Below are positions 3,666 to 29,685 of a stretch of 64,000 nucleotides of DNA, piece by piece. The notes below the pieces were generated by a model, which searched no databases, had not been told where the DNA came from, and saw nothing but the letters and a program-made list of their open reading frames with translations. Within the stretch, counting starts at the first letter, position 1, and the number at the start of each line of letters is the position of its first letter. The position numbers were made by a program, and so were the translations under genes. This stretch comes from Trypanosoma brucei (taxonomy: Eukaryota), in the NCBI GenBank assembly GCA_000002445.1, contig CP000071.1, positions 672,001 through 736,000 on the forward strand. The letters run 5' to 3'.

Positions 3666-4235
3666 ATGAGGCAATGCAGCAGAACAATAAACGGATTGGG
3701 GGTATCTTGTTTCAGCCCGTGTATGTGGAAGGAATGCACTTCACGTAGAGGCAAACACACGATTGCAAAAGGAAAGCAGGTGATTACAGAAGAAAGGGAA
3801 GTGAGGAGAGAACCAACAGCTTCCAAGGCTAATTTGCCTCTCCGGGAAGCGTCTTACATAACTCGCAGCGTGAAGCGGTTTCTCACCACATCGTCCAGAG
3901 ACCGGTGGAACCGACGAGATGTGATTTGTCCAAGACAATACGCACGGGAGTATCGAAATCGTTTCCAGAAGGTAAATGATGCCTTTCACAGTGCCGGAAA
4001 GAAGGGAAGAATGTACTCATTTGAAGCTATAACGCTTCAGTTCAGTGGTGTGGAGTGGTCCTACTTAATTCTCCCTGCAACCTTGGCACTGTTTGTCATT
4101 GTTTTTATCGGTATTGTTGAGAGAAGGCGGCGGGGAGGGGAACTGTTGGTGCTTCAGCAGCAGGTGGAAGCATGGGCTGCAGAGAGAAGCAGAAGCGACC
4201 CGTACCTAGAAACAGTTGGGAGTACAAGAGGATGA
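3666..4235 (+). CDS. Hypothetical protein, 189 aa, with one predicted TM helix.
   Basis: A + strand ORF containing a hydrophobic stretch, YLILPATLALFVIVFIGIV. No family recognised. The start codon is uncertain. Confidence 0.25.
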   Translation: MRQCSRTINGLGVSCFSPCMWKECTSRRGKHTIAKGKQVITEEREVRREPTASKANLPLREASYITRSVKRFLTTSSRDRWNRRDVICPRQYAREYRNRFQKVNDAFHSAGKKGRMYSFEAITLQFSGVEWSYLILPATLALFVIVFIGIVERRRRGGELLVLQQQVEAWAAERSRSDPYLETVGSTRG

Positions 4236-7739: not shown

Positions 7740-10700
7740 GTGGCTCACGCCATGGATACAACCAATGGCGGTGGGAACTGTAACGTTCGGGGCCTTGGGG
7801 GAAGTCTCATTCGGCTGTTGGAACTTTACCCTGTTAAGCAAGTAGCTGCCGATGAGGGAACCACGGAAACGGAGCAGGGTATGAGCAAAGAAGAAGTTAA
7901 CTCACCGTCACCGGTGAAATCGCAGAGGGAAGGGAACATGAAAAGGAATCGTGTGGTGAATTCCCATCCGCCCAAACAAGATGTACTAGATTGTGCCGAA
8001 GTGGGTCAGTACCTGATTGCGACGGGAAGTAAGGACAAGGTGTCGGCAATGCAAGCAAACGTTCTTGAGGTCAGATCGGCGCTCAGTGCTCCGTCTCCTG
8101 TGGCCATACCGAACGCGAATCAGTGTCCCTCGAACGTTCTCCTGACTCCTCTAGTACCTACCGGCGAGTATGTACCGTCCTATGACACGAAGGAGCAAAT
8201 AAAATATTCACTCGTCGGCGAGCCGGGCACTAGGTGCCAATCTCCTTTGCCTCTCTTCCGCGGGAGCCGTGTCGACGACCAGGTGCGGGAAGCAACGATG
8301 TTCTTCAGTAACCTCCTCGCAGCTCGGCAACACGAGTGTGCCGATCAGGAAATGGGGCCGCTTCATGGCGGCTCTGGTGCGCCGTATCAGCTGCCAGCGT
8401 TTTATGACATCTTGAGCCGAACCATCGGTACCTCCCGTAGTCGCGAGGCCGGCCAAGAATCGAGGGAAGCGGGTGGTTATCTTCCTCTAATTTCACCAGT
8501 TCATGCCGGTGCAACCTCCTCTGGGCGCCTGTTTAGAGGTGTGCGCCACAGTAGTGCTCGGTTGAGGTCAAATACGCCACTCGGCAATGACTTTTGTGTT
8601 GGTGGAGTATGCGGACTGATGGGTAGAAGACTGATAGGTGTGCCCGTGCATGACCGCAGGCTTAACGCGCATTTGATGTCATCGTGGGAAAAGGGCGTTA
8701 AGGCAAGGTTACCCGCGAGAAAGGCGTTCAAGGCCATAAAGTCCTCATGTTGGTGGCGGCTGGCGGGCTCACGTGAAGGATTGTTGCTGGCTGCGCGGCT
8801 CGTCAACCTCGATGCTGATGTTTACGAAAGTTTGCTGACACGCTGGGTGGATGGAATCCGCCACTCCTATACCCGGTTTGTGACCGTGAATGTTGATGCT
8901 TTTGTCTCAGAGGACATTGGCCAAAATTTAATTACTGGGCCAAGGGGGAGAAAGTTGGGACCTGTATTGCCCTTTAGTGGTTCTGAGGCGGTGATGAACT
9001 CGTTGTTCCCAGGTGACGTCGAATTGAGTGATATGTTGGGTGTGGCTCGACAACTAGGTTATTTGCAAATGGGAGGGGCCCTTTGCGAAGATGATGTGGC
9101 GCGAGTGTTGCAATGTGACACAAGAACTATCCAACGGGAGCTGCGTCGGCTCATGCTCCAGCGAAGTGGAGGGACCGTGCAGCCACTCGGTGTATTACCC
9201 ATATTTGAAGGGAAGGGATGCCGTTTATACGAACCTAATACCGCTATCAGACAGATTTCGAGGGCAATTCTGCGTGCGAGACGGAGGGCTGCAGCGGAGG
9301 AGGCCAAGAAGAAGGGCAGGAAAATTAGATTCAGCCTGCTTCCGGACGTTACGACGTGCTCTAGGGTTCTGCAGCGCCGTCTTCAAAAGATCGCCGCCAG
9401 CAGGCCAGGGGATGTTCAGGCTCTACTTGAGCAACTGGGGGTGCTTGCCGACGCCGTTAATAGCGGAGGATTAGAGAGTATAAAAAGCTGCCCCGAAGTG
9501 TTGAGTCGTCTCCAGGAAATTATTGCGGACATGCCCCCCGATGTGCAAGCTTCACTTCAGCAGCTGGGGTTCCTCACTGACGATAGCGGTAGGATTTCGG
9601 TGAGTTCTGACGGGCGGCCTCGTGTTTCCCGGGGCCGTTCCAGGAAGGCAGCAAACGTTGTGCCTAGCAACGTTCACAAATTTTTGAAGAAGCTGGACAA
9701 TATTTCTCGAACTATCACTGGTGGTGGCCCCCCGGAGTCGGATGGCTCCGCTGAACTTCTGCAGCGCGGTCTTCAAGAGATCGCCGCCAGCAGGCCAGGG
9801 GATGTTCAGGCTCTACTTGAGCAACTGGGGGTGCTTGCCGACGCCGTTAATAGCGGAGGATTAGAGAGTATAAAAAGCTGCCCCGAAGCGTTGAGTCGTC
9901 TCCAGGAGATTGCTGCCAGCATGCCTCCCGACGTACGAGCTTCACTTCAGCAGCTGGGGTTCCTTCCAGATGGTGACGGCGTAATTGGCGTTGAAAATTT
10001 GTGTGAAGTGGCGAAAAGACAGCAGGAACTAAGTTCTGGTGCTCCTCACCCGTCGGAGGGAATGCGGGGTGCGACAACTGAGGGGTTGAAGAGTCCAACA
10101 GAAGGCGCCTCGTTCAGTGTATCTGCACGCCGCAAAATTCGAAGGAGGACACCAAAAGTAGTGAAAATGGCAGCAGCAGACGAGAAGGGACCTATTGTAC
10201 ACAACGTGCCTCCATCTTCTGTGAAGGACCAAGGCGAAGGTCCCGCTGCCAGGGATAAATCGGCACTCTCCGCCTCCTCTCCGTTAGGTGACGAAGCAAC
10301 TGCCTGGCCCGGAAACCACGCGGCATTCGCCGTCGATGAGTCGGAGGCCGATGCAAAAGACCAGAGTTGGGAAGATACCGCATTTGGGACCAAAAAGGGG
10401 CTGTTGAAGAAGAGACGACGGTTGAGAAGTAAGACGTCCAGCGAGCTCGAGACCCTCACCGATGACGATGCAGAGAGGGCACTCTTTGCGGACAAGCATG
10501 CCAGTTTCGGCAAGCGGTCGTCCCCTGGAAGGTTTAGAGGGCGTACATCGCCCATGGGGGTTTTGGGAATTGAAAGTTTTCCAACTAGTGGAGATGCTGA
10601 TGATCCATTATCGGGCTTCGTTGCATCTCAGCTGAAGGAAAGCTATTCGGGGCCTCAGGAGGGTGAAGAAACAGACGATTACGAGTATACTCCGCGCGAG

Positions 10701-12239
10701 AGGAGCAGGATGAATCGATCAAGAGCACAGCCTGTGTTTTCTGAATGGGACACCGAACAACTACCCCCACAGTTGCCTTCTGGTGCCAAGGATCCCAGGC
10801 TCTTATCGCAGACGGCGAGCATATTGGTGTTTCCTAACAGCGGGAGGAGAGGAAGCAGAGCAGCATCCGTTGCGTCGCGAACGGCATGTAGTGATACTGA
10901 AAGTGTTCGAGGCGTGGAGGACCCGTGGGAGCTCAGCAGCATGTTCAGCAACGATGATAATGAACTTGCGCTGTTTCTCGCAACATTCCCTGATGAGGAA
11001 CGCCACGTACAATTGCGTCGGGAGGCGCACCGTGTCTTGGATGACATCAATGCCGGAAGCAAAGTTCTGGAGGAGTACGCGATAAAATTGAAGGTGCGGC
11101 CCTCGAGCATGGGCCCGTCTGCCGGAGCCGGAGGTGGAATGCAGCCGTGCGAGCAAGAGTGGACTGAACGGGACGAGCAGATGGAGAAGCGTATGCTTGA
11201 GTGCAGAGTGGACATTCAGAGCATGGTGGAGCGCTTCAAGGCAGAGGCGCAGGAGGAGTATGCCGACCTCTGGCGTACGCTTCAGGAGCTTCGGAAACGA
11301 GTGGAGGTCCAAGAAGCTTTGCTTGAGGAGACCAAGTTGGATATAAACCGTCTTTCGTATCCTATGGAGGGTGAAGACACTGATGCCTTCGCACTGAGGC
11401 TGACGCGCGAGGTGAATGCATTTGCCGAACAAAACAAACTGGACCCGCAGCAGCTGAAAGATTTGACAACCGCGAAGCAGGACCGTGAAGCCGCCGTGCG
11501 CAGCTTTCTAGAAAGCTTTGCGCGAACGCGCGGCCGACGGGGAGGTGTAAGTGTTGGGTGCCAATGCACACCAAAAGATCTGGGGTACATCGACACGGAA
11601 GTACTAGAACTTAACAAACAAATGGAGGATCTACAATACCATGCACGTGGCCTGCTTAATTCGATTAAGCTTGTTGTTATATCTATGGGGAATGTACTAA
11701 GTTTCCACTCCGCACTTGAGCTGGAGTCGACATGCAAGCGTTGCTTTTGTATCTTCGAGGAACCCCGGACCTTATGGCCCTGTGGACATTCGTTTTGCTT
11801 GCATTGCCTTACGCAGATGATCTCCAAGGGAGGCGAACTTATATGCGATGAATGTGGGACGCTCTGCCTGGTTGGTTACACACCGAACTTTGCCATTGAA
11901 ATGGTGGCCGGCTACCAACTTATGTGGATCAACTCCGCTGAGGACGATGTGAGCGAGGATTCCTTGTGTAGTTCACCTTCCCCCAAAAGCAGCCTCACGA
12001 GCAGTAACAGTAAAGGCAGTAAACCCTCATCTCATGCAGGGCAAAAGCGTCGTACAGTTGAGAAGGTGCTGGCGGGTCTGCTAAAGGACCTTCTTAGTAC
12101 ACAGGGCTCAGGCAAAGCCACAAGGAAGACAGAGCGGAAGTCAAAGAAGCCCTCCAAGTCAACCTCTGGCGAGTTACCTCTACCGCCGTTGAAAGGGGGC
12201 CTTCCACCGTCGGCGGCAACTAAGGTTCAGTGTGCTTGA
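7740..12239 (+). CDS. Large coiled-coil protein with a C-terminal C3HC4 RING finger, a putative E3 ubiquitin ligase. It contains an internal duplicated segment of about 130 aa.
   Basis: A 1499-aa ORF. The RING sequence is CKRCFCIFEEPRTLWPCGHSFCLHCL...CDECG. Upstream of it lie long heptad-like regions (EAQEEYADLWRTLQELRKRVEVQEALLEE). A near-identical 206-bp DNA repeat sits at 9369-9574 and 9759-9964. Confidence 0.7.
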   Translation: MAHAMDTTNGGGNCNVRGLGGSLIRLLELYPVKQVAADEGTTETEQGMSKEEVNSPSPVKSQREGNMKRNRVVNSHPPKQDVLDCAEVGQYLIATGSKDKVSAMQANVLEVRSALSAPSPVAIPNANQCPSNVLLTPLVPTGEYVPSYDTKEQIKYSLVGEPGTRCQSPLPLFRGSRVDDQVREATMFFSNLLAARQHECADQEMGPLHGGSGAPYQLPAFYDILSRTIGTSRSREAGQESREAGGYLPLISPVHAGATSSGRLFRGVRHSSARLRSNTPLGNDFCVGGVCGLMGRRLIGVPVHDRRLNAHLMSSWEKGVKARLPARKAFKAIKSSCWWRLAGSREGLLLAARLVNLDADVYESLLTRWVDGIRHSYTRFVTVNVDAFVSEDIGQNLITGPRGRKLGPVLPFSGSEAVMNSLFPGDVELSDMLGVARQLGYLQMGGALCEDDVARVLQCDTRTIQRELRRLMLQRSGGTVQPLGVLPIFEGKGCRLYEPNTAIRQISRAILRARRRAAAEEAKKKGRKIRFSLLPDVTTCSRVLQRRLQKIAASRPGDVQALLEQLGVLADAVNSGGLESIKSCPEVLSRLQEIIADMPPDVQASLQQLGFLTDDSGRISVSSDGRPRVSRGRSRKAANVVPSNVHKFLKKLDNISRTITGGGPPESDGSAELLQRGLQEIAASRPGDVQALLEQLGVLADAVNSGGLESIKSCPEALSRLQEIAASMPPDVRASLQQLGFLPDGDGVIGVENLCEVAKRQQELSSGAPHPSEGMRGATTEGLKSPTEGASFSVSARRKIRRRTPKVVKMAAADEKGPIVHNVPPSSVKDQGEGPAARDKSALSASSPLGDEATAWPGNHAAFAVDESEADAKDQSWEDTAFGTKKGLLKKRRRLRSKTSSELETLTDDDAERALFADKHASFGKRSSPGRFRGRTSPMGVLGIESFPTSGDADDPLSGFVASQLKESYSGPQEGEETDDYEYTPRERSRMNRSRAQPVFSEWDTEQLPPQLPSGAKDPRLLSQTASILVFPNSGRRGSRAASVASRTACSDTESVRGVEDPWELSSMFSNDDNELALFLATFPDEERHVQLRREAHRVLDDINAGSKVLEEYAIKLKVRPSSMGPSAGAGGGMQPCEQEWTERDEQMEKRMLECRVDIQSMVERFKAEAQEEYADLWRTLQELRKRVEVQEALLEETKLDINRLSYPMEGEDTDAFALRLTREVNAFAEQNKLDPQQLKDLTTAKQDREAAVRSFLESFARTRGRRGGVSVGCQCTPKDLGYIDTEVLELNKQMEDLQYHARGLLNSIKLVVISMGNVLSFHSALELESTCKRCFCIFEEPRTLWPCGHSFCLHCLTQMISKGGELICDECGTLCLVGYTPNFAIEMVAGYQLMWINSAEDDVSEDSLCSSPSPKSSLTSSNSKGSKPSSHAGQKRRTVEKVLAGLLKDLLSTQGSGKATRKTERKSKKPSKSTSGELPLPPLKGGLPPSAATKVQCA
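9369..9964 (+). repeat. Intragenic direct duplication with a 390-bp period: two copies, roughly 9369-9574 and 9759-9964, nearly identical at the DNA level.
   Basis: The repeated DNA is cgccgccagcaggccaggggatgttcaggctctacttgagcaactgggggtgcttgccgacgccgttaatagcggaggattagagagtataaaaagctgccccgaag. It encodes IAASRPGDVQALLEQLGVLADAVNSGGLESIKSCPE twice. Confidence 0.85.
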
Positions 12240-14482: not shown

Positions 14483-15904
14483 ATGCGGCGGGCTTCGCAT
14501 GTTTGCACGTCGTGTGAACTGCTGGGTTTCCAGAAGCAATTTCTCATGCTCTCCAACCGCGGTAATAGCAGTGGTGATAATGACGTCATCGATACAAGTG
14601 GCGGCAAGTTCCGCAACGGCAATGGGGATGGAAAAGACGACGATGTTGTGACACCATGGAATGTTTCTGCCACCGGAGTGCGGGGTGTCAACTATGATCG
14701 TGTGTTGGTGCGATTTAAGTCCCAACCTATCGGTGAGCCACTGTTAAAAAGGATGCAGGATGTTTGTGTTGAAAGAGTGAAATGCAATAATAGCGAAAGA
14801 GGACACAATGCGGAAAGGAGTGCAGTGGGTGAAGAGGTGCAGCCATTGCATCACTTCTTCAGGCGTGGCATAGCCTTTTCGCACAGAGATTTTGACATCG
14901 CACTGACCAACGTGCAGGAAGCCTTAAGATCGGGAACTCAGGGAGCGTATTTATACACTGGTCGCGGTCCGAGTACGCGGACAATGCATCTTGGACACGT
15001 GATACCCTTTATGCTTACGCGCTACCTGCAGGATGCGCTCGGGCTGCCGCTAGTCATCCAAATCACCGACGATGAGAAGTTTTTTTTTCGCGATGTACCG
15101 TTGCATGACAACCGATGCTCGGACGGAATTGATATTGTAACCGAAAACATAAAGGATATTATTGCATTTGGCTTTGACCCTAAACGGACGTTTATTTTCC
15201 GGAACACCTCCTACATGGGTAGCATGTATCCTACCGTTGTTCGCCTGCAGCGCACAATGACACTCAGTGCCGTGAAGAATACGCTGGGATTGATCGATAA
15301 TGACAATATCGGGAAAGCCTCCTTCGCTGCTACTCAAGCAGCGCCTTGCTTCAGTAGCTCCTTTCCGTGCATCCTTGGAGAACAAGATTTTGAAAAGCCT
15401 CTACAGTGTATTGTGCCATGTGCCATTGATCAGGATCCGTACTTCGTTCTGGCGCGGGCATCGGCATCCCGCATGAAGTATCGAGCTCCCGCACTACTGC
15501 ATACAAAATTCCTTCCAGCTTTGAAGGGGATGAGACTAAAGATGAGTAGTAGTGCCGAGGAGAGCGGTGTGATAACATTGCACGACTCACCGGAGCAAGT
15601 ACAAAAGAAGATGAAGAAGGCTTTCTCCGGCGGTAGTGGGACACTGGACGACATGAAGACGAAAGGCGTGGATTTGGAGGCCGATGTGGCCTACCAATTC
15701 ATTCGGTTTTTCTCTCCGGACGACGAGATGGTTGGGGAGGTATCGGCAAAGTATGTGGTTGGTGAGATGAACAGCTGTTATGTGAAGAGCTTAGCCGCAG
15801 ATGTTGTCGTCCGGCATGTGCTGCGCAACTGGCAAGCGAAGCGAAAGCTGGTGACAGATGAGGAGGTTCGGCGGTTTACGGAGGTGCGCAACATTATGGC
15901 GTAG
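14483..15904 (+). CDS. Tryptophanyl-tRNA synthetase of the eukaryotic/archaeal type. The N-terminal extension suggests an organellar isoform.
   Basis: Collinear with cytosolic TrpRS: YTGRGPSTRTMHLGHVIPFMLTRYLQDALGLPLVIQITDDEKFF (HIGH motif HLGH), IAFGFDPKRTFIF, IGKASFAATQAAPCFSSSFP and LKMSSS (KMSKS motif). The true start may be an internal Met. Confidence 0.9.
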   Translation: MRRASHVCTSCELLGFQKQFLMLSNRGNSSGDNDVIDTSGGKFRNGNGDGKDDDVVTPWNVSATGVRGVNYDRVLVRFKSQPIGEPLLKRMQDVCVERVKCNNSERGHNAERSAVGEEVQPLHHFFRRGIAFSHRDFDIALTNVQEALRSGTQGAYLYTGRGPSTRTMHLGHVIPFMLTRYLQDALGLPLVIQITDDEKFFFRDVPLHDNRCSDGIDIVTENIKDIIAFGFDPKRTFIFRNTSYMGSMYPTVVRLQRTMTLSAVKNTLGLIDNDNIGKASFAATQAAPCFSSSFPCILGEQDFEKPLQCIVPCAIDQDPYFVLARASASRMKYRAPALLHTKFLPALKGMRLKMSSSAEESGVITLHDSPEQVQKKMKKAFSGGSGTLDDMKTKGVDLEADVAYQFIRFFSPDDEMVGEVSAKYVVGEMNSCYVKSLAADVVVRHVLRNWQAKRKLVTDEEVRRFTEVRNIMA

Positions 15905-16145: not shown

Positions 16146-18689
16146 ATGGACGCGCAAGTTGGAGTTGTTCAGCAACCGGTGACCACTAGTTCAACGATTT
16201 GGGTTGGGGAATGTCAATGTCCAAAATGGAAAAAATCTACCCACCGTGCGGTTGAGCAAAACCTGACGACTTCACTAGAATGCGGTGGAGAAAGAGATGC
16301 ACTCCTTGATGTTGCTTGCGGAAGTGGCATTGACATAGATTCTTTCCTTAGAGAGAAGTGGATTCGTGTAGCATTTACTTCTAGTTTCGGAAGTAACAGT
16401 AGGGTCCGCGTGCGGGCGAGAAGGGTGAGGATAGGTAGCCATGAGTTTGTCGTGGTGGAACGGAACGTTTTTGGGTGTGATGACTCGGTATATCGAAAGG
16501 ATAACAAACTTTGGGAGGGTTTGCCCCGTGGGCAGGCCTGCGTATTTGTCGAATCGGGCGACAGGGCTGGGTTTATACCCATAGGTAGACTTCAAGGCCT
16601 GCGGAAGTTCAATTCCTTCGACGGACCATATGGTATTAGGGGAAGGCAACCCGTTAGTGCTGTTGCGATGGAGGCCATCGACGGGGACTGTGGTCATATC
16701 TCTGCGTTCGTGCACACTGGAGAGCGGTATTGGCTTGTTGGGAACAAAGATACTCACCTATTAGTAAGCTTCAGTGTACCAGAGAAAGATATATTCTCCA
16801 ACACCGCCGAAGGTGGTGCCATAACGAATGAGGGGGACAAGCCACTTCAGGGGGCTAACTATTCACCTCCGTCGCTAGCGGTGCGGATAGCAAGGCTCTG
16901 GGGTCAAACGCTTCGAGCACTTCCCGATGAAAAATCATTCGGTTTGCATGAGTTTTTGTCTTCAAACAGGTACACGGCTTGCTTCGACGCTGTGCTACAG
17001 GACTGTGGACACCTTGTCGACTACGGTGAAGATGAACTTCTACAGTTTTACGCTCTGACCCAAAGTGGTGAATCGCTAGCAGAGGGCTTGTGCGTGGATC
17101 CAGTTAGCGCTATAGTAAACCTGCAGTCCTTTGGTCTTCGTGTAGTCCCCTTCCATAGTGAGCAATGCTCATCAGTACCTGAAATTCTGGATCTTGGAAC
17201 GGACGAGTATTCGCAGTACGGGGGCCAGGTTGCGCGTCGTCTGAACTGCAGAGGAGCGGTTATGTACGGCTTGGACGCCCAGGGCATTGTGGTTCGGTTG
17301 TGGAAGTTACCTTCGCACGCATACGTGGTTGAGCGTGCGGCACAGGAGGCCATTGTGACGCATCGCCTGAGCGGTACCGTCTTGCGCGACAAGTTGCGGA
17401 GGAAGTTAGACCGCTTGCCGAAAGAAATACGACGATGTGTCACTGAATGGAGTTCAGCCCGTCTTGAGCCATTGTTGAACCTTGCAGCGTGGTTGCACAT
17501 TATGGGGAAAGTAACACCGGAGGTTGGCCTCGATGGATTGCAGGAGGTCCGTCGCAGTTGGATAACACTTCAACAGCAACTTGTGAAGCACACAAAGGAC
17601 ATGCGTGAGCACTTACAACTGTACGAGCCCCCAGTGGCCGAGGCAGCTATCAATAACCCGGACGTCATCATGTGTGTGGGGCCACAAGGTTGTGGCAAGT
17701 CCACGTTTTGTCGCGCTTTCTGTGTCTTACTCCAGAAGGTAGGTCAGAAGCCTCGTTGGATCAACCAGGACGAAGTGGGTGGTCGAAATGAGTTTATCGA
17801 GGCCATCCGACGTGCCAAGGAATCCGACTGTACACATATTCTTATAGATAAAATGAATCTTGACGATGCGGCACGAAATGCTGACTACGCCTCTTTCAAC
17901 CTAAAAACGATAACCGTCGCTTGGGTACATCCTTGTGATGTAGACGTTATGGTAAGTACGTGCCTAGAAAGAGTATGCCATCGCGGCAATGCACATCGCA
18001 CATTCAGAGGAACCGTCTCCCCGGGGAAAAAGAGGAAAATGATGACAATTATCCGTGGGTGTGTACAGCGATGCGAACCACCAACAACAGGGATTGTTAT
18101 TGAGGCCAATGTCTTGGACCCCCCGGCCATAACCATAGAATCTGTGTGGAAAGGTCTCTGCCGACACACAATGTCTGAACTTCCAGATATTAAAGATCTT
18201 TCCGTTGCCGACGCGTTGGAAATTGCTCGTAGGTACGAATTACTCTTGTCACACTCATCGCGTCCCTTCAATTGCGGCATCATAAAGGTTGTGAATTCAG
18301 AACTTCTTGTCGCCCTTGTGCCTGCAGATTACCTTGAGGGCAAAAAAATGCGCAAGGAACTCGACATCAGCACAATCTATCTTGGTGACAGATCCCATTT
18401 CGATCTTACGCTTCTGTCAGAGTTACAAACGTTGGAAGGTACTTCCATCCAGGTGGCACCTGTCCGTATCGCGTCCGACGCAAAGGCAACAGCAATTGAA
18501 ATTCGTAACAATAACGAATTCCCATGCCAAAATGCACACCCACACATTACCATTGCTACTGCTCCCGGTGTACCAGCGAAGTATAGCAATGAGCTGCTAA
18601 GCAAAGTAAGCACTGAAACAAGCGACATCAAGGTAATGGAGGTGTCACCTGATGTATCCATTTCAGGTGTGTTTCAGTTTGTGCGGTGA
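16146..18689 (+). CDS. P-loop NTPase, polynucleotide kinase-like, with a conserved C-terminal domain that also occurs in the downstream tandem-array proteins. It may be a CNPase-like or tRNA-ligase-like RNA end-processing enzyme.
   Basis: Walker A VIMCVGPQGCGKSTFCRAF at about aa 515. A Walker B-like THILIDKMNLDD follows. The C-terminal 125 aa (LEGKKMRKEL...LEGTSIQV...NNNEFPCQNAHPHITIATAPG...GVFQFVR) align end to end with the 199-aa array proteins. HPHITI is an H-x-T-x motif, as in 2H phosphoesterases. The start is uncertain and may be an internal Met. Confidence 0.65.
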   Translation: MDAQVGVVQQPVTTSSTIWVGECQCPKWKKSTHRAVEQNLTTSLECGGERDALLDVACGSGIDIDSFLREKWIRVAFTSSFGSNSRVRVRARRVRIGSHEFVVVERNVFGCDDSVYRKDNKLWEGLPRGQACVFVESGDRAGFIPIGRLQGLRKFNSFDGPYGIRGRQPVSAVAMEAIDGDCGHISAFVHTGERYWLVGNKDTHLLVSFSVPEKDIFSNTAEGGAITNEGDKPLQGANYSPPSLAVRIARLWGQTLRALPDEKSFGLHEFLSSNRYTACFDAVLQDCGHLVDYGEDELLQFYALTQSGESLAEGLCVDPVSAIVNLQSFGLRVVPFHSEQCSSVPEILDLGTDEYSQYGGQVARRLNCRGAVMYGLDAQGIVVRLWKLPSHAYVVERAAQEAIVTHRLSGTVLRDKLRRKLDRLPKEIRRCVTEWSSARLEPLLNLAAWLHIMGKVTPEVGLDGLQEVRRSWITLQQQLVKHTKDMREHLQLYEPPVAEAAINNPDVIMCVGPQGCGKSTFCRAFCVLLQKVGQKPRWINQDEVGGRNEFIEAIRRAKESDCTHILIDKMNLDDAARNADYASFNLKTITVAWVHPCDVDVMVSTCLERVCHRGNAHRTFRGTVSPGKKRKMMTIIRGCVQRCEPPTTGIVIEANVLDPPAITIESVWKGLCRHTMSELPDIKDLSVADALEIARRYELLLSHSSRPFNCGIIKVVNSELLVALVPADYLEGKKMRKELDISTIYLGDRSHFDLTLLSELQTLEGTSIQVAPVRIASDAKATAIEIRNNNEFPCQNAHPHITIATAPGVPAKYSNELLSKVSTETSDIKVMEVSPDVSISGVFQFVR

Positions 18690-20158
18690 TGAACACCTCT
18701 TTCTTCATGTTCTTTTCGGTATAACCTACAGAAGTAACGATGAGTACATTAACGGTTGTTGTTTGTTGTGCTCATCGATGAGGCATTAATACCACCCTTT
18801 GTTTTTCCTTTTTTTCTTCTTTGAATCATTAATAAATTTTATCTTGCTTTGTACAAACAATTTTACGTGATTTATTTTGTCCTTAGACGTAGACAATAAT
18901 TTTGATGATAGTGTTTATGTGGACGAATATATTTCTTTGCAATTCACGATTGGATCCAAGTATATTGATGGGAACTTGTGACTTAGGGGAAACGAGTGGT
19001 GTGCTGACATGCTCTCGCAGCACTGATATTCCCCCATAATGCTATGCACTCTGAACTGCATGTGTTGTGTCTGTGTGTATGTGTATACATGGTGTGTCGT
19101 ATGTCCTTTTTGTCTCTATACAACAATAACCTTATACTACGCATCTTGTTACATTCCAACTTTTTCTCTCTAAAAATATACCTAATTTTACAACAAATTA
19201 GGAGGAGGAGGAGTGTGTCTTAACATTGTTTATGTGCCGTATCGTGATGACAGATATTCAGCTGACGCCACACTCATCGGATGTAAGAAGATGTGCCAGT
19301 GATTATACGTAATGTCTTTGCTACAGGTGATTGTACGATATGACCATACCGACTAAACCAACCGAGATCAATGAGGCATGAAATGTTCCCGCCCCGTTTT
19401 CAATTAAGTGACGGTGTGATTACAGACAGGATGTAAGTGAGTCAATGTCAATATCTCCGTATTACACCATGAGGACTATTGTCCCCCGTGTCTGACCGCC
19501 GCTTCCACCTCCTCTCTCCCTTCTTTTCTCCTTTCTTGTTTCTTCTCTTTCACTTACACATGATGTCATTTCGTATTCTGCAATACTGACAATAACTTGA
19601 GCGAGACAAGACATATTTGACTACTGGCAACTGAAACCCGCCACCCTCTCGGATTCTTTGGTCCTCCACTAGTTACTCAACGGTATTTCACTTTAGCTCA
19701 GCGTATATATGAATATAACGTCCACGGAGCTATAAGATGTTCCCATTACCTACCTTTATTGTTATCACGAGGCTCAAAAGAACACACTGAGCGTGTACCA
19801 ATGCCCAGTGAGTGGGACAGCCATCGAAGATAAGTGTTTGTTTTACGGCAATGAGGTTCGAATGCGCCTGACGGTTTTTGTCCGACGTGGTGTGGGAAAC
19901 GCCTCAAAGAAGTTACTGCACCTACACCTTCATTTTCACGGGTATATATTATCCCTGGTCACTAATTGATGTTTGGTATGTTTAATCTGTCACTGAACAC
20001 TACTCACTTGTTTCCCCAGTGTAAGTGTGTCATCTTTCCCGTCTGTGCATTCACATGAATTTTAACTTTTATTACTCATAAATTATGTTTTGCCTCAATT
20101 ATATAGACACCGCTTTATACGCAATTTTAAGCAAGGAAGTCCAACAAGGTGAATTATA

Positions 20159-20758
20159 ATGGGTTGTGGAGGTTCAGCTCCTGCTAACAAAGACAGGCAT
20201 GTGGGTGCAGATCCACCAAAACCTTCAGAGCATTCGGAACATTCAAAACCTTCAGATCCTTCAGATCCTGCTGATGCTACTCGTATTCACAAAATCTGTA
20301 CACTTCCACTACATGACAAGGATAAGCCAGTTGCTGCTGCAGCAATTAGGGTTACCGACCCCAAGTGTATTTCGGATATTTTACCTCCGGAATTCCTTGA
20401 GGGAAAGAAGGTGCATAATGAATTTTGTGCAATTACTCTCTCCTTCGATGATGGAAAGCCGGAGGATGAAGGCCTTTTTGAGAAGTTGAAGGAATTGGAA
20501 GGTACTTCCATCGAATTGAAACCAACCCATATTGTGATGAATGAAAAAGTCGCCGCCATTGGGGTGTGTAATAATGATGAATTCCCCTGCCAGGACGCAC
20601 ACCCGCATATCCTCGTTGCAACTGCTCCAGATGCCACACAGGAGGATATTGATGATGTAACCAAGAAAGGAAAGATTGAGATATTTTGCGCGAGAAAACT
20701 TCCCGATCTGCCACCTGATATCACCATCCCAGGTGAGTTTCGTTTCATGCACTGGTGA
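20159..20758 (+). CDS. Array copy 1: a 199-aa protein with an N-terminal MGCGGS dual-acylation (myristoyl-Gly2, palmitoyl-Cys3) signal. Its C-terminal domain is homologous to the C-terminus of the 847-aa P-loop protein.
   Basis: The protein starts MGCGGSAPANKDRH. The region EFLEGKKVHNEF...LKELEGTSIELKPTHIV...CNNDEFPCQDAHPHILVATAP...IPGEFRFMHW aligns with 16146-18689 aa 720-847. It is identical to copy 3. Confidence 0.75.
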   Translation: MGCGGSAPANKDRHVGADPPKPSEHSEHSKPSDPSDPADATRIHKICTLPLHDKDKPVAAAAIRVTDPKCISDILPPEFLEGKKVHNEFCAITLSFDDGKPEDEGLFEKLKELEGTSIELKPTHIVMNEKVAAIGVCNNDEFPCQDAHPHILVATAPDATQEDIDDVTKKGKIEIFCARKLPDLPPDITIPGEFRFMHW

Positions 20759-21821
20759 GTATTTCCCTGTTCCTTGTGTTTCAATGGTTTCACAAGAGTA
20801 CATATGAATTGTTGTAAGTGTGCTGGCAGTTGCTGTTACTCTGATCGATCAAAGAGTTAGTGGTACTGCGCTTCATTACTTTATTACTTTTGCTATTTTG
20901 TTTTACGAATTTACTTGCCTTTGTCCCTTCTTACTTTCCTTTTGATAACCTTTAGATATTTGCGTGTGGAGGTTTTGGTTTACTGTTATACACATCTGGG
21001 GCTATATTCCCTTCATTTGAATTTTATTATTGCGGTATTGACTTTTTCTTTCAAAGAAGATGATGAACGTTGGAATAACGAATAGGGACGATACGAGGGG
21101 AATGAAGAAAAGGCAGAAAAATGATACGGAGAGGAGGGAAAGACAAAATACAAACAATATGTGGGAGAGATATTTTTGCTTTGCTTTGGTTTGATATCTG
21201 TTTTGTTTGTTTTTTTTTCGTTGTGTTCGATGTTTTTTTGATCTTATTTTCCGAGACTTTATTATACAGGATTTGTTTAACTTATGTACTTTATTACCTA
21301 TTGCTTGTGTGCCATTGTTGTGTTACTATGAAACATTTATTGGTGTGGCAGAGTAAAATGTGTTTTGGCATTGCTTTCCACAAGTAACCGAAGGGCACCA
21401 AATATTTGCTACGGGAGAGCACTGAAATGAAAGGAAACAACTAAACACACTGAGCGTGTACCAATGCCCAGTGAGTGGGACAGCCATCGAAGATAAGTGT
21501 TTGTTTTACGGCAATGAGGTTCGAATGCGCCTGACGGTTTTTGTCCGACGTGGTGTGGGAAACGCCTCAAAGAAGTTACTGCACCTACACCTTCATTTTC
21601 ACGGGTATATATTATCCCTTGTCACTAATTGATGTTTGGTATGTTTAATCTGTCACTGAACACTACTCACTTGTTTCCCCAGTGTAAGTGTGTCATCTTT
21701 CCCGTCTGTGCATTCACATGAATTTTAACTTTTATTACTCATAAATTATGTTTTGCCTCAATTATATAGACACCGCTTTATACGCAATTTTAAGCAAGGA
21801 AGTCCAACAAGGTGAATTATA

Positions 21822-22421
21822 ATGGGTTGTGGAGGTTCAGCTCCTGCTAACAAAAACAGGCATGTGGGTGCAGATCCACCAAAACCTTCAGAGCATTCGG
21901 AACATTCAAAACCTTCAGATCCTTCAGATCCTGCTGATGCTACTCGTATTCACAAAATCTGTACACTTCCACTACATGACAAGGATAAGCCAGTTGCTGC
22001 TGCAGCAATTAGGGTTACCGACCCCAAGTGTATTTCGGATATTTTACCTCCGGAATTCCTTGAGGGAAAGAAGGTGCATAATGAATTTTGTGCAATTACT
22101 CTCTCCTTCGATGATGGAAAGCCGGAGGATGAAGGCCTTTTTGAGAAGTTGAAGGAATTGGAAGGTACTTCCATCGAATTGAAACCAACCCATATTGTGA
22201 TGAATGAAAAAGTCGCCGCCATTGGGGTGTGTAACAATGATGAATTCCCCTGCCAGGACGCACACCCGCATATCCTCGTTGCAACTGCTCCAGATGCCAC
22301 ACAGGAGGATATTGATGATGTAACCAAGAAAGGAAAGATTAAGATATTTTGCGCGAGAAAACTTCCCGATCTGCCACCTGATATCACTATCCCAGGTGAG
22401 TTTCGTTTCATGCACTGGTGA
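21822..22421 (+). CDS. Array copy 2: a 199-aa MGCGGS protein. It differs from copies 1 and 3 by D11N and E176K.
   Basis: Same unit, offset by 1663 bp. The substitutions are ANKNRH versus ANKDRH and GKIKIF versus GKIEIF. There is also a synonymous aac/aat change and one spacer SNP. Confidence 0.75.
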   Translation: MGCGGSAPANKNRHVGADPPKPSEHSEHSKPSDPSDPADATRIHKICTLPLHDKDKPVAAAAIRVTDPKCISDILPPEFLEGKKVHNEFCAITLSFDDGKPEDEGLFEKLKELEGTSIELKPTHIVMNEKVAAIGVCNNDEFPCQDAHPHILVATAPDATQEDIDDVTKKGKIKIFCARKLPDLPPDITIPGEFRFMHW

Positions 22422-23484
22422 GTATTTCCCTGTTCCTTGTGTTTCAATGGTTTCACAAGAGTACATATGAATTGTTGTAGGTGTGCTGGCAGTTGCTGTT
22501 ACTCTGATCGATCAAAGAGTTAGTGGTACTGCGCTTCATTACTTTATTACTTTTGCTATTTTGTTTTACGAATTTACTTGCCTTTGTCCCTTCTTACTTT
22601 CCTTTTGATAACCTTTAGATATTTGCGTGTGGAGGTTTTGGTTTACTGTTATACACATCTGGGGCTATATTCCCTTCATTTGAATTTTATTATTGCGGTA
22701 TTGACTTTTTCTTTCAAAGAAGATGATGAACGTTGGAATAACGAATAGGGACGATACGAGGGGAATGAAGAAAAGGCAGAAAAATGATACGGAGGGGAGG
22801 GAAAGACAAAATACAAACAATATGTGGGAGAGATATTTTTGCTTTGCTTTGGTTTGATATCTGTTTTGTTTGTTTTTTTTTCGTTGTGTTCGATGTTTTT
22901 TTGATCTTATTTTCCGAGACTTTATTATACAGGATTTGTTTAACTTATGTACTTTATTACCTATTGCTTGTGTGCCATTGTTGTGTTACTATGAAACATT
23001 TATTGGTGTGGCAGAATAAAATGTGTTTTGGCATTGCTTTCCACAAGTAACCGAAGGGCACCAAATATTTGCTACGGGAGAGCACTGAAATGAAAGGAAA
23101 CAACTAAACACACTGAGCGTGTACCAATGCCCAGTGAGTGGGACAGCCATCGAAGATAAGTGTTTGTTTTACGGCAATGAGGTTCGAATGCGCCTGACGG
23201 TTTTTGTCCGACGTGGTGTGGGAAACGCCTCAAAGAAGTTACTGCACCTACACCTTCATTTTCACGGGTATATATTATCCCTGGTCACTAATTGATGTTT
23301 GGTATGTTTAATCTGTCACTGAACACTACTCACTTGTTTCCCCAGTGTAAGTGTGTCATCTTTCCCGTCTGTGCATTCACATGAATTTTAACTTTTATTA
23401 CTCATAAATTATGTTTTGCCTCAATTATATAGACACCGCTTTATACGCAATTTTAAGCAAGGAAGTCCAACAAGGTGAATTATA

Positions 23485-24084
23485 ATGGGTTGTGGAGGTT
23501 CAGCTCCTGCTAACAAAGACAGGCATGTGGGTGCAGATCCACCAAAACCTTCAGAGCATTCGGAACATTCAAAACCTTCAGATCCTTCAGATCCTGCTGA
23601 TGCTACTCGTATTCACAAAATCTGTACACTTCCACTACATGACAAGGATAAGCCAGTTGCTGCTGCAGCAATTAGGGTTACCGACCCCAAGTGTATTTCG
23701 GATATTTTACCTCCGGAATTCCTTGAGGGAAAGAAGGTGCATAATGAATTTTGTGCAATTACTCTCTCCTTCGATGATGGAAAGCCGGAGGATGAAGGCC
23801 TTTTTGAGAAGTTGAAGGAATTGGAAGGTACTTCCATCGAATTGAAACCAACCCATATTGTGATGAATGAAAAAGTCGCCGCCATTGGGGTGTGTAATAA
23901 TGATGAATTCCCCTGCCAGGACGCACACCCGCATATCCTCGTTGCAACTGCTCCAGATGCCACACAGGAGGATATTGATGATGTAACCAAGAAAGGAAAG
24001 ATTGAGATATTTTGCGCGAGAAAACTTCCCGATCTGCCACCTGATATCACCATCCCAGGTGAGTTTCGTTTCATGCACTGGTGA
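23485..24084 (+). CDS. Array copy 3: a 199-aa MGCGGS protein, identical to copy 1.
   Basis: Same unit, offset by 3326 bp from copy 1. Confidence 0.75.
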   Translation: MGCGGSAPANKDRHVGADPPKPSEHSEHSKPSDPSDPADATRIHKICTLPLHDKDKPVAAAAIRVTDPKCISDILPPEFLEGKKVHNEFCAITLSFDDGKPEDEGLFEKLKELEGTSIELKPTHIVMNEKVAAIGVCNNDEFPCQDAHPHILVATAPDATQEDIDDVTKKGKIEIFCARKLPDLPPDITIPGEFRFMHW

Positions 24085-25134
24085 GTATTTCCCTGTTCCT
24101 TGTGTTTCAATGGTTTCACAAGAGTACATATGAATTGTTGTAAGTGTGCTGGCAGTTGCTGTTACTCTGATCGATCAAAGAGTTAGTGGTACTGCGCTTC
24201 ATTACTTTATTACTTTTGCTATTTTGTTTTACGAATTTACTTGCCTTTGTCCCTTCTTACTTTCCTTTTGATAACCTTTAGATATTTGCGTGTGGAGGTT
24301 TTGGTTTACTGTTATCCACATCTGGGGCTATATTCCCTTCATTTGAATTTTATTATTGCGGTATTGACTTTTTCTTTCAAAGAAGATGATGAACGTTGGA
24401 ATAACGAATAGGGACGATACGAGGGGAATGAAGAAAAGGCAGAAAAATGATACGGAGAGGAGGGAAAGACAAAATACAAACAATATGTGGGAGAGATATT
24501 TTTGCTTTGCTTTGGTTTGATATCTGTTTTGTTTGTTTTTTTTTCGTTGTGTTCGATGTTTTTTTGATCTTATTTTCCGAGACTTTATTATACAGGATTT
24601 GTTTAACTTATGTACTTTATTACCTATTGCTTGTGTGCCATTGTTGTGTTACTATGAAACATTTATTGGTGTGGCAGAATAAAATGTGTTTTGGCATTGC
24701 TTTCCACAAGTAACCGAAGGGCACCAAATATTTGCTATGGGATAGCAATTTAAATGCAGGGAAGGTGAAGGAGGGCAATAATTGGACAATGTAATTTTTT
24801 TTTACTGTTATGTGTTCGATTTGGGTAGGAAAATGTGATTGTGGGAGCTTGTCCTGGGGTGATGGAGGTATTTTTCATTTTTTTGTGATGGTAATGATTT
24901 TTTTTTTTTTGGTCGGCCCTTTGTGTCAACTAGCATCTTCTTTGGAGTAGGTGCATATGTGCGTGCAGCTGCTTTTTAGTGAGCACCTCGTGTTTTAAGT
25001 GTCTTTTTTTATTATACCTTTTTGCTATTACCTTCTTGTTTTTTGCTTTTGAAACGTTTTTGATAATACACTAAAAGAGTAGACAGAAAACAGTAGTTGG
25101 TATATAGAAGAACTTATTAGTCGCTTCTCGAGTT

Positions 25135-26940: not shown

Positions 26941-27548
26941 TTGCTCTGTGAGCTGCGCAAGCACCTAATGGTGAAAAGATGTTGCATCGTTGCCAGCAAG
27001 AGTTTGGCGCACGAACCAACAGAATCTGGAAAAGGAGTAATACGTGCCACATGAGTTTCGTGGTGGCGCGTCACCCCTTTTCCGTTGCCATAAGATCGTA
27101 TCGTGTTGCCTGGATTGCTCCCCCTCATATGAATTTGAGTGTTTCATTACACAGTGGTATCATCTGTTATTGCTATCGTCGTAGTTTCTCACAACTTTAG
27201 ATGTGCTCGTTTGAGGCGACAACCAAGTGCCTTGTGGGAGGTTCTTCCATTTTTCCACCCCCCCACACGGAGTTGCGGCACAAGCTCATTGAAAGGGGTG
27301 AAAGAAAAAAGGAAAGGAGAGGTACAGTGGAGGATAAAATTGTGTTTAAAATGGCCCCCTTCACTTTTCTTCCTGTCTTCATGCCTTTATATATATATAT
27401 ATATATATATATATTCCTAGCACACTAATTGATCCCTTCACTTCTTCCCTCTACTTAGCAACTTTAGGAAAGGTAGAACGTGAAGCAGAGAGAAGCACCA
27501 AGTTATTCCTCAGAGGGTTTTCTCACCCGGTGTAGCATAAATTAAGAG

Positions 27549-27878: not shown

Positions 27879-29685
27879 TGGGTGTAGGAGCAAGATAAAA
27901 GGGAAAGGCAGTTGAATGAACGGATTTGTGGTGTCGGTTAGGCTCAGGGAGGGGGAAGAAGTAAAATAAAATGAAAGGGAGAAGGTAATGGTGAGAATGA
28001 TGGTGTGTATAAGGAAGAGGGAGGGTGAAAAGTGAAGGAAGGAAAAATGAAGAAGGAACTGTAAGGGAGATGAAGAGGTGAGAATTGGAAGAGATTATGT
28101 CGAAAAGGAGGAGAAAACGGGCTTGAGAGGTAGGTTGAGGTTCTAGCATCCAGTGAAGGAACAAATTTGTTAATTTGCTTTTCCCCCAATCTCATATCAT
28201 CGCACTTTGTAAACCTTCTCTGCCGCTTACGCGGTTGAAGGGAGACAGAACGGGGTGACACCAAGAAAGGAGACATTTCTTCTTTCATTTTTTGTGTGTT
28301 TGTTTGTGTGGACGATGCGAGGGGGGGGGACAAAAAAAAAAAAGCGACTTAAACCTGGGGGCTGGGCGTGTAATCGTGCCGCAGTGGCCTTCTCCTGAAA
28401 CCAGTATCTCCCGTTCGCCCACAAAATGTCTCTTTTTATCATTTCCTGCACGATCACATTTGCATACTTTGGCTTCTACCAAATGCGTTTGCCCCGCACC
28501 AGTTTCTTTCTTTTTGTTTTTTTTCGTTATTTTGTTGGCGCTGTTGATCTTATTTTTGTGTGTTTGTGCTTCTCCCCCTCTCCTCTCTCTTTCCCTCTTT
28601 TGAATGATGCGATGTGTTTTGTGTCTTTGCTTCAACCCATAACATTGCTTTCATTCAACATCCTTGTTCCTATATACGGACATGGCACCTTTGTGCCCCT
28701 TCTTTTCCATTCTCTTTCCAAAAAAAGACAAAACAATAAAAATGTGCAACTCCCTGTTCCTGTGTTGGTTGAATTGTGGGACAGTTCTTGCTATTCATTC
28801 AAAATATTACGTTTCTTTAAACTGAGGGGAGCGACGTTGCCGTCATTTGCATCAGTCCCTTACCCTCCTCCTCTCTTCCATGTTGTTAGACTTTCATGGA
28901 GTAATGAAGCTCAAATATTCTTATTACGCATGTGTCTCCGGTACGTTTCATATGTTTTTCGTTTCTCTCCGTCTTTTTCTTTTCTTTTTTCTCCCTTTTC
29001 TTTTTCCCCATGCGGGTGTGACATGGCTTTGTCGCGTTGAAGGAACGTTAAGCATTGAGCCATTCAGTAGTCCACTACACTGGCTGTACCAATTATTATT
29101 TTTCTTTTGATTCATACATTTACAAATACATAAGGGAGAAATTAATAATTTAAAAAAAATAATTGATCAACAGTAAGAAAATAAGGATAAGTTAAATTAA
29201 CAAAAAGTGTGGAGGAGACAGCTTTTCTCCCCCTCCCTTGTGGTGCATCTGTGCGCCTGTGGACGGTCTTTACACATTTTTTTGCCGCGGGGAAATATCT
29301 CCCCTTATTGTTCTTTGTTTGCAGCCAACAATTAATATAATTCATTTGGTGCTATTTTAGTCGTATTAGTTGGCAAACTTCTTCACCTTCGGAGAAAGCA
29401 GCACGAAAAGGGAAGAGTCCCGGCGGGAGATTTACCCTCCTGTATTTTTCTTCAGAAAAAAAAAGAGAACAGGTCTGTCTGATAACGAATACGGTTGCAG
29501 GGGTAAGTAAAGAAGTATATATACATAGAAAGAGCAGTTTTGAGGTGAAGCTCATCTGGAACAGGGCAAAGTGGATAGCACCACACAATTAAGATAGAGT
29601 GTTTTAGTTATTTGTCGCTGGTGCCACTTTTGTCGGTCTTCACAATCTTTATTTTGAGCAGTTACTCACTGCCTTAAGTAACACC

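Follow-up and report, generated by a model that had tools for sequence, protein, structure and literature searches.

The closest described relatives of the proteins considered here belong to the Trl1-CPD/CNPase clade of the 2H-phosphoesterase superfamily. The Trl1-type CPD domain (PF08302), found in fungal Trl1 and in the trypanosome protein TbTrl1, is fused to a ligase and a kinase, soluble and catalytically essential. Vertebrate CNPase carries an N-terminal kinase-like domain, keeps the catalytic pairs H230/T232 and H309/T311 and is active; it is anchored through its C-terminus, lipid-modified and abundant, and has a partly structural role. A further structural comparison is the central domain of AKAP7/AKAP18; AKAP18 keeps the HxT motifs and binds AMP. 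Classical tandem arrays of trypanosomatids, such as those of the tubulins, histones and calflagins, consist of head-to-tail, near-identical units that lie within a polycistronic unit and encode an abundant product. Here we describe a tandem array that encodes POMP39, a stand-alone relative of the CPD domain, in a window of 64,000 nucleotides of Trypanosoma brucei chromosome 8 (NCBI GenBank assembly GCA_000002445.1, contig CP000071.1, positions 672,001 to 736,000 of the forward strand; all positions below are those of the window). The whole is best explained, with a probability of roughly 65% in our estimate, if POMP39 is a Trypanozoon-specific, lipid-anchored pseudo-phosphodiesterase that has been amplified in tandem.

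The array is an already annotated gene family and a routine feature of the T. brucei reference genome. Its three open reading frames (ORFs) of 199 aa are exact matches to XP_847059, XP_847060 and XP_847061, and its genes are Tb927.8.2260, Tb927.8.2270 and Tb927.8.2280, the first and last of which are listed as POMP39-2 and POMP39-4 in the supplements of PMC10998879 and PMC7861527; Tb927.8.2270 is presumably POMP39-3, judging from the numbering. In the supplementary tables of the same papers Tb927.8.2070 is POMP39-1, and Tb927.8.2080 is annotated as "phosphodiesterase domain containing protein". The POMP39 genes are recorded as hypothetical proteins ("Uncharacterized protein" in UniProt) with no precomputed Pfam domain, and a literature look-up by old gene identifiers and UniProt identifiers found no papers. 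The label "Proteasome maturation protein 39A" used in T. b. equiperdum is evidently a wrong expansion of the POMP acronym. The coding sequences (CDS) and the upstream gene to which they are related are as follows.

20159 to 20758, + strand: CDS of copy 1, 199 aa, POMP39-2 (Tb927.8.2260)
21822 to 22421, + strand: CDS of copy 2, 199 aa, with D12N and E174K (XP_847060, old identifier Tb08.26A17.50)
23485 to 24084, + strand: CDS of copy 3, 199 aa, POMP39-4 (Tb927.8.2280)
16146 to 18689, + strand: Tb927.8.2250 (XP_847058, exact match), 847 aa, with DUF7920, a P-loop polynucleotide-kinase-like domain and a CPD domain (Pfam)
18207 to 18686, + strand: CPD (2H) domain of Tb927.8.2250, residues 688-847, homologous to POMP39 38-197 (BLASTP)

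POMP39 has a compact 2H-phosphoesterase fold of the Trl1-CPD/CNPase type and is homologous to the CPD domain of Tb927.8.2250. An earlier sequence-only reading of this DNA was right about the array and described its product as a small protein; that this protein is a CPD-domain paralogue of the adjacent gene had gone unrecognised. Residues 38-197 of POMP39 align with residues 688-846 of Tb927.8.2250 (BLASTP, 36% identity, E 7e-30), and at the DNA level positions 715-848 of the repeat unit match 18432-18565 with 68.7% identity over 134 nt (E 8e-9). When the repeat unit was compared with the rest of the window, only its coding core matched Tb927.8.2250, and the spacers and flanks were unrelated; because just the coding core still aligns, the duplication from Tb927.8.2250 is old rather than recent. 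The structure was taken from an alignment-based model, and a single-sequence AlphaFold model with a pLDDT of 42.6 was discarded. The alignment-based model predicts the 2H domain confidently, with low pLDDT at residues 1 to about 50, and its best Foldseek match is 6u05; a sequence search of the PDB with the paralogue as query gave no matches. Both the bilobed alpha/beta fold, as predicted, and the sequence homology to known members place POMP39 in the Trl1-CPD/CNPase clade, with a much weaker structural similarity to the AKAP7/AKAP18 domain and 15% identity to CNPase. The PF08302 (tRNA_lig_CPD) profile gives 35.6 bits for Tb927.8.2250 and 44.2 bits for Tb927.8.2080, against a cut-off of 23.

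When 1.84 billion representative proteins were searched exhaustively with a profile, 78 relatives were returned, with the POMP39 type confined to one cluster. Among them are orthologues of Tb927.8.2250 in T. congolense, T. theileri, T. vivax and Leishmania tarentolae, as well as many protist proteins of 700-1200 aa and a few small stand-alone proteins. A published orthogroup comprises Tb927.8.2070, 2080, 2260, 2270 and 2280 together with one T. congolense gene, and has no members in T. vivax or T. cruzi. The family occurs in T. brucei and T. congolense only, and its POMP39 type in Trypanozoon only. Measured against the annotations and the literature reached, this assignment is a new if modest addition, which gives a fold and an origin to four "hypothetical" POMP39 genes that are among the stronger signals in published stumpy-form proteomics.

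Although its fold is that of the superfamily, POMP39 fails the catalytic-motif test of the 2H enzymes and is on that account a predicted pseudoenzyme. POMP39 was aligned with 21 other sequences (alignment A3, in POMP39 numbering), and positions shared by at least 90% of the sequences were taken as conserved. These are H90, T92, D103, A133, N146, H150 (which is invariant), I151, T152, Y163, S164, N165, L167 and G192, among which POMP39 has C90, I92, D146, L152, D163, I164, D165 and V167. The remains of the two motifs were located in copy 1.

20426 to 20437, + strand: relic 2H motif 1, C90-A91-I92-T93, where homologues have H-[VI]-T-[TVLIA] (A3)
20606 to 20617, + strand: relic 2H motif 2, H150-I151-L152-V153, where homologues have H-[IVM]-T-[IVLM] (A3)

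Three of the four catalytic residues are thus replaced (H to C, T to I and T to L), and the YSN motif is lost. H-x-T stands in both motifs in 20 of the 21 other sequences, the exception being Tb927.8.2250 with D-I-S in motif 1. In TbTrl1, mutation of the second-motif His (H802A) fails to rescue TRL1 RNA interference in vivo, and the CNPase mutant structures in the PDB target H230, T232, H309 and T311, the same four residues. While the Trl1-type domain shares its fold with POMP39, the latter stands alone, is predicted to be lipid-anchored and reads C-A-I and H-I-L at the two motifs, and from these replacements it is apparently inactive toward 2',3'-cyclic phosphates. POMP39 might instead still be an active phosphoesterase with a rewired centre, using H150 and C90 or acting on another phosphodiester, with an activity boosted by the array. 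H150, the sole invariant residue of the whole family, is indeed kept, the fold is predicted with high confidence, and the coding sequence is under constraint. However, both threonines that partner the His residues in 2H enzymes have given way to Ile and Leu and the first His to Cys, the conserved N and YSN positions are replaced as well, which brings the altered near-invariant positions to 7 of 12, and the combination of residues found in POMP39 is absent from all 78 relatives of the profile search; we regard a rewired enzyme as unlikely.

The second feature of POMP39 as a proposed lipid-anchored pseudo-phosphodiesterase is its N-terminus. Gly2 together with Ser6 matches the consensus of N-myristoyltransferase, and in dual-acylated kinetoplastid proteins palmitate is usually attached at Cys3. 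Gly2, Cys3 and Ser6 are present in all three array copies, where they are followed by a repetitive linker.

20159 to 20179, + strand, and again at +1663 and +3326: codons for MGCGGSA, with N-myristoylation at Gly2 (with Ser6) and palmitoylation at Cys3 predicted from sequence
20220 to 20269, 21883 to 21932 and 23546 to 23595, + strand: 9-bp repeat AACCTTCAG, 5.6 copies, Pro/Ser-rich linker KPSEHSEHSKPSDPSDP

The array genes appear, under their old identifiers Tb08.26A17.40/.50/.60, as high-confidence predicted N-myristoylated proteins with a score of 0.986 in the supplement of Mills et al. 2007 (PMC1885993). The N-termini listed there (MGCGGSAPANKDRH, ...KNRH and ...KDRH) agree with the three array copies, the D12N variant included. 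The linker that separates the acylation signal from the 2H domain is about 45 residues long and disordered, with low model confidence, and its length varies, with 13 aa fewer in Tb927.8.2080 and 3 aa fewer in one equiperdum copy. As annotated, the small CPD proteins of T. congolense and T. grayi lack an MG start, so the acylation anchor is apparently an addition of the T. brucei lineage. Compared with CNPase, the membrane anchorage is of independent origin.

Dual acylation would put POMP39 on the cytosolic face of a membrane. Which membrane this might be is indicated differently by different sources. POMP39 could work at the flagellar or pellicular membrane, like other dual-acylated proteins of the MGC type, with its presence in the outer-mitochondrial-membrane fraction due to co-purification. 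In the Mills table (PMC1885993) an entry named flagellar calcium-binding protein likewise begins with MGCGGS, and POMP39-2 has the curated Gene Ontology term axoneme and the DeepLoc prediction Cell_membrane. Against this, the POMP gene name records enrichment in an outer-mitochondrial-membrane preparation, a proximity-labelling paper classes POMP39 with mitochondria-associated proteins, and the TrypTag entry is ND. We consider a flagellar or pellicular site a serious possibility, though one held tentatively and at somewhat less than even odds.

There is a precedent in T. brucei for a protein of the kind that we propose. According to PMC3220528, metacaspase 4 (MCA4) is an enzyme-family paralogue that is catalytically dead and predicted to be N-acylated, and it stands next to the POMP39 genes in the predicted N-myristoylome list (PMC1885993). 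It differs from POMP39 in that it has an unrelated fold, that of a peptidase, is encoded by a single gene and has a demonstrated role in virulence.

The sequence-only reading had expected high expression of the array product, and published proteomics bears this out. In the stumpy-form proteome (PMC7861527) the POMP39-1 protein group was detected with 14 peptides at 84.4% coverage and reaches an iTop3 of about 4-10e8, and POMP39-4 is told apart by 2 peptides at 82.9% coverage. For scale, iTop3 in the same study is about 2e8 for Tb927.8.2250, 5e7 for Tb927.8.2080, 1.5e9 for a VSG and 1e10 for beta-tubulin, and most neighbouring genes lie between 1e7 and 1e8 (PMC7861527). POMP39-1 is termed bloodstream-form specific (PMC7861527), and POMP39-2 was recovered as an Alba4-proximal protein under starvation in the proximity-labelling paper.

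The array from which this protein is expressed consists of three units.

19781 to 24745, + strand: tandem array of three 1663-bp units (repeat finder and period-1663 comparison)
19781 to 21443, + strand: unit 1, made of a 378-nt 5' part, the 600-nt CDS and a 685-nt 3' part
21444 to 23106, + strand: unit 2, the variant copy, with 8 sites unlike unit 1
23107 to 24745, + strand: unit 3, its final 30 nt or so grading into unique flank

The repeat finder returned three head-to-tail copies starting at 19781, 21444 and 23107, with spacings of 1663 and 1663 nt; Tandem Repeats Finder, which is blind to periods above 500, found in the array only the 9-bp linker repeat, once per unit. Units 1 and 2 agree at 1655 of 1663 positions (99.52%, 8 differences), units 1 and 3 at 1629 of the 1631 positions of their shared part (99.88%, 2 differences), and units 2 and 3 are 99.51% identical. 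Because three 1.66-kb copies are more than 99.5% identical, a chance origin of the array is excluded. Every unit contains one ORF of 600 bp, stop included, and 1063 bp of spacer. The proteins of copies 1 and 3 are identical, and copy 2 differs by D12N, E174K and two synonymous sites. The three-copy array put forward in the sequence-only reading, with 1663-bp units that differ at few positions and hold a 600-bp ORF and about 1.06 kb of spacer each, is therefore confirmed in its essentials. The further statement that identity ends abruptly at both flanks is correct for the left side, where a base-by-base comparison at period 1663 gives a sharp edge at 19781, but not for the right, where identity extends to about 24737 and then fades across 30-40 nt. 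Like the classical trypanosomatid arrays, this one has near-identical head-to-tail units with one CDS each on the coding strand of a polycistronic unit, and an abundant product; unlike them, it has just three copies and encodes a lineage-restricted family. The repeat unit is also AT-richer than its surroundings, with a G+C content of 40.2% (CDS 45.5%), compared with 48.4% for the whole window.

Units of more than 99.5% identity are difficult to assemble, and the three copies could be an assembly artefact, or the real number could differ through collapse of a longer array. In T. b. gambiense DAL972 apparently one copy is annotated here, judging from the consecutive accessions CBH13223 and CBH13225, and in a Logan short-read assembly a contig of 1371 bp ends near the unit junction. 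On the other hand, single-nucleotide polymorphisms at 19957, 20192, 20572, 20678, 20725, 20817, 20990, 21132 and 21353 tell the copies apart (1 and 3 alike, 2 different), three separate gene models, Tb08.26A17.40/.50/.60, have existed since the BAC-based release, and unique flanks join cleanly on both sides of the array. The format of these identifiers suggests, as we take it, that all three copies lay in one sequenced bacterial artificial chromosome (BAC). The distinguishing polymorphisms and the one-BAC identifiers argue against a duplicated-contig artefact, and we think it quite improbable that the copy number is wrong.

Concerted evolution, also proposed in the sequence-only reading, is supported in that the spacers are near-identical as well as the coding sequences, which fits recent amplification or homogenisation of the three copies. 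The 1371-bp contig comes from the sequencing run of another strain and has 98.7% identity with the unit. Its nine coding differences are all confined to a single patch of 16 nt, which reads RIHKIC in the array and RFKQFC in the contig.

20283 to 20298, 21946 to 21961 and 23609 to 23624: 16-nt patch, RIHKIC in all array copies

POMP39-1 and the copies of gambiense and equiperdum all have RFKQFC, which makes RIHKIC a derived feature common to the three array copies of TREU927. Such a feature is consistent with homogenisation or recent amplification inside the array; no donor for the RIHKIC patch was found within the window. Outside the patch the contig shows 0 differences in 584 coding positions and 10 in 753 spacer positions (Fisher p 0.003, from this one contig), and the POMP39 coding sequence is accordingly under purifying selection. 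This bears on whether the copies might be decaying, functionless duplicates of a domain fragment, that is, expressed pseudogenes. The loss of the catalytic residues would suit such an origin, as would a frameshifted copy of 212 aa in T. b. equiperdum (RHW70741.1, our P0011; the other protein from this source is RHW71046.1, P0007). Yet all four TREU927 copies have an undamaged ORF, as do copies in gambiense and equiperdum, the protein is detected at high intensity with 84% coverage, the spacer is less conserved than the coding sequence (p 0.003), the fold is confidently predicted and the acylation signal is conserved. Decay of the copies is highly improbable in our judgement.

Independent trans-splicing and polyadenylation of each copy are plausible and would be expected from trypanosome biology. 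The sequence-only reading saw pyrimidine tracts of its own in the spacer of each unit. The spacer has U-rich stretches at 20880-20945 and 21180-21250, but uninterrupted pyrimidine runs within the unit do not exceed 11 nt, and the sole long tract lies outside the repeat.

19508 to 19551, + strand: 44-nt polypyrimidine tract, the strongest in the region, located between Tb927.8.2250 and the array

Being outside the repeat, this tract could be used by copy 1 only, and copy 1 may have a splice-acceptor region different from, or additional to, that of copies 2 and 3.

The sibling of POMP39 bears on its origin. Tb927.8.2080 (XP_847041, our P0002) adjoins POMP39-1 (XP_847040) about 17 genes upstream of the array. 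Like POMP39, it has the MGCGGS start, a Pro/Ser linker and a single 2H domain and falls in the same published orthogroup; unlike POMP39, it has H-I-T in both motifs, keeps YSN, scores above the Pfam cut-off, is single-copy and has an iTop3 about 20-fold lower. It is a mosaic. Over the first 80 alignment columns it is 59% identical to POMP39 and 33% to Tb927.8.2250, whereas over the final stretch of about 90 residues the identity is 95% with Tb927.8.2250 and 43% with POMP39. In T. congolense the small gene CCC92007 adjoins the large gene CCC92006 and is near-identical to its C-terminus. This near-identical pair and the mosaic Tb927.8.2080 suggest that gene conversion has repeatedly linked the stand-alone gene with the large gene's 3' end. 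In T. brucei, as these identities imply, such conversion would span loci about 17 genes apart, and POMP39 would appear to have escaped it.

The most economical history, inferred from these comparisons, would have five steps. First, the large gene would have been duplicated in part, at its 3' end, to give a stand-alone CPD gene, as is seen beside the large gene of T. congolense, and a dual-acylation N-terminus would then have been gained in the T. brucei lineage. After a further duplication, the Tb927.8.2080 branch would have kept both HxT motifs and continued to be converted by the large gene, while the POMP39 branch would have escaped conversion and lost its catalytic residues. POMP39 would finally have been amplified into the dispersed copy Tb927.8.2070 and the three-copy tandem array, the latter presumably homogenised through unequal crossing-over or conversion of recent date. 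Within the space of about 20 genes, the locus offers examples of domain-level duplication, of gene conversion and of the formation of a pseudoenzyme.

Taken together, POMP39 would be co-translationally myristoylated at Gly2 and palmitoylated at Cys3, tethered through its flexible linker to the cytosolic face of the membrane, and would serve there, without hydrolysing 2',3'-cyclic phosphates, as a high-copy binding or scaffolding module whose abundance would be supplied by the gene dosage of the array. The last step of this proposal, an abundant binding or scaffolding protein of the bloodstream stages that owes its abundance to gene dosage, is one we put forward tentatively, as an analogy with a somewhat lower chance of being right than wrong. 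The parallel with CNPase is suggestive, as an analogy and not as evidence. Drawn further, it would make POMP39 an independently arisen trypanosome counterpart of CNPase, a very abundant, lipid-tethered, non-catalytic 2H protein on the mitochondrial outer or flagellar membrane that would, specifically in bloodstream stages, bind RNA ends with 2',3'-cyclic phosphates or nucleotides or act as a scaffold, with Tb927.8.2080 meanwhile active and exchanging sequence by conversion with the Tb927.8.2250 CPD domain, in which motif 1 has changed from H to D; this we regard as doubtful.

Several points weigh against reading POMP39 as a lipid-anchored pseudo-phosphodiesterase with such a role. POMP39 itself reaches just 13.2 bits with PF08302, below the cut-off of 23. 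H150 is kept and a Cys takes the place of the first His, with inactivity read from the loss of the motifs. The acylation of POMP39 is a prediction from its sequence, and the localisation labels conflict, with an outer-mitochondrial-membrane name set beside a curated axoneme term, DeepLoc Cell_membrane for POMP39-2 and ND in TrypTag. The scaffolding or binding role is an argument by analogy. As regards origin, the small CPD proteins of T. grayi and of two further contigs may be truncated gene models, and the age of the stand-alone CPD gene is uncertain for this reason.

The proposal predicts that POMP39 has no CPDase activity, that its membrane binding depends on G2 and C3, and that Tb927.8.2080 is the active sibling. 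It is relevant to recent work that treats the CPD domain of Trl1 as a drug target in trypanosomes. There are at least six further CPD-like domains on T. brucei chromosome 8, and since Tb927.8.2080 is the only one of them with a complete active site, it is the sole plausible source of redundant CPD activity.

The upstream gene Tb927.8.2250 has a Trl1-like Pfam layout of DUF7920, a tRNA-ligase-type P-loop kinase domain and a CPD domain. Its identity with TbTrl1 was considered and rejected; TbTrl1 has 870 aa, K107, a P-loop at 400-404 and H802, whereas Tb927.8.2250 has 847 aa, a P-loop near residue 510 and DUF7920 at its N-terminus. It is a second T. brucei protein with a Trl1-like layout, distinct from TbTrl1. 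Motif 1 of its CPD domain is D-I-S (H to D) in TREU927 and in T. b. equiperdum, while its orthologues in T. congolense, T. theileri, T. vivax and L. tarentolae keep H-[IV]-T. The kinase domain resembles stand-alone Mucorales RNA kinases in the PDB. In DUF7920 (16146-17350), at residue 174, non-trypanosomatid homologues share the motif K-E-N-G-E-C-[GA]-H, the beginning of which is A-I-D-G or L-I-D-G in Trypanosoma and E-E-N-G in L. tarentolae. The shared motif looks like nucleotidyltransferase (ligase) motif I, and if DUF7920 is a ligase domain, the catalytic Lys would be missing in trypanosomatids. A paper on the deviant RNA ligase 2 of Diplonema was considered as an account of the DUF7920 family and set aside as unrelated.

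Exact-sequence look-up of ten ORFs of the window identified nine as proteins of T. brucei brucei TREU927 chromosome 8, two of which flank the region described above.

14483 to 15904: tryptophanyl-tRNA synthetase, XP_847057 (exact match)
28426 to 29040: Tb927.8.2320 (exact match)

Every ORF of at least 300 aa in the window lies on the + strand, which is consistent with a single polycistronic unit. Two ORFs of 189 aa at 3666 and 4674 were considered as a second tandem pair and rejected, as their sequences are unrelated. An ORF of 1499 aa (7740-12239, + strand) contains an internal direct repeat at 9367-9979, of 223 nt at a spacing of 390 nt and 91% identity, which is probably a repeated protein module. 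A perfect (TA)13.5 microsatellite occupies the intergenic positions 27388-27414, upstream of the V-ATPase G subunit gene.

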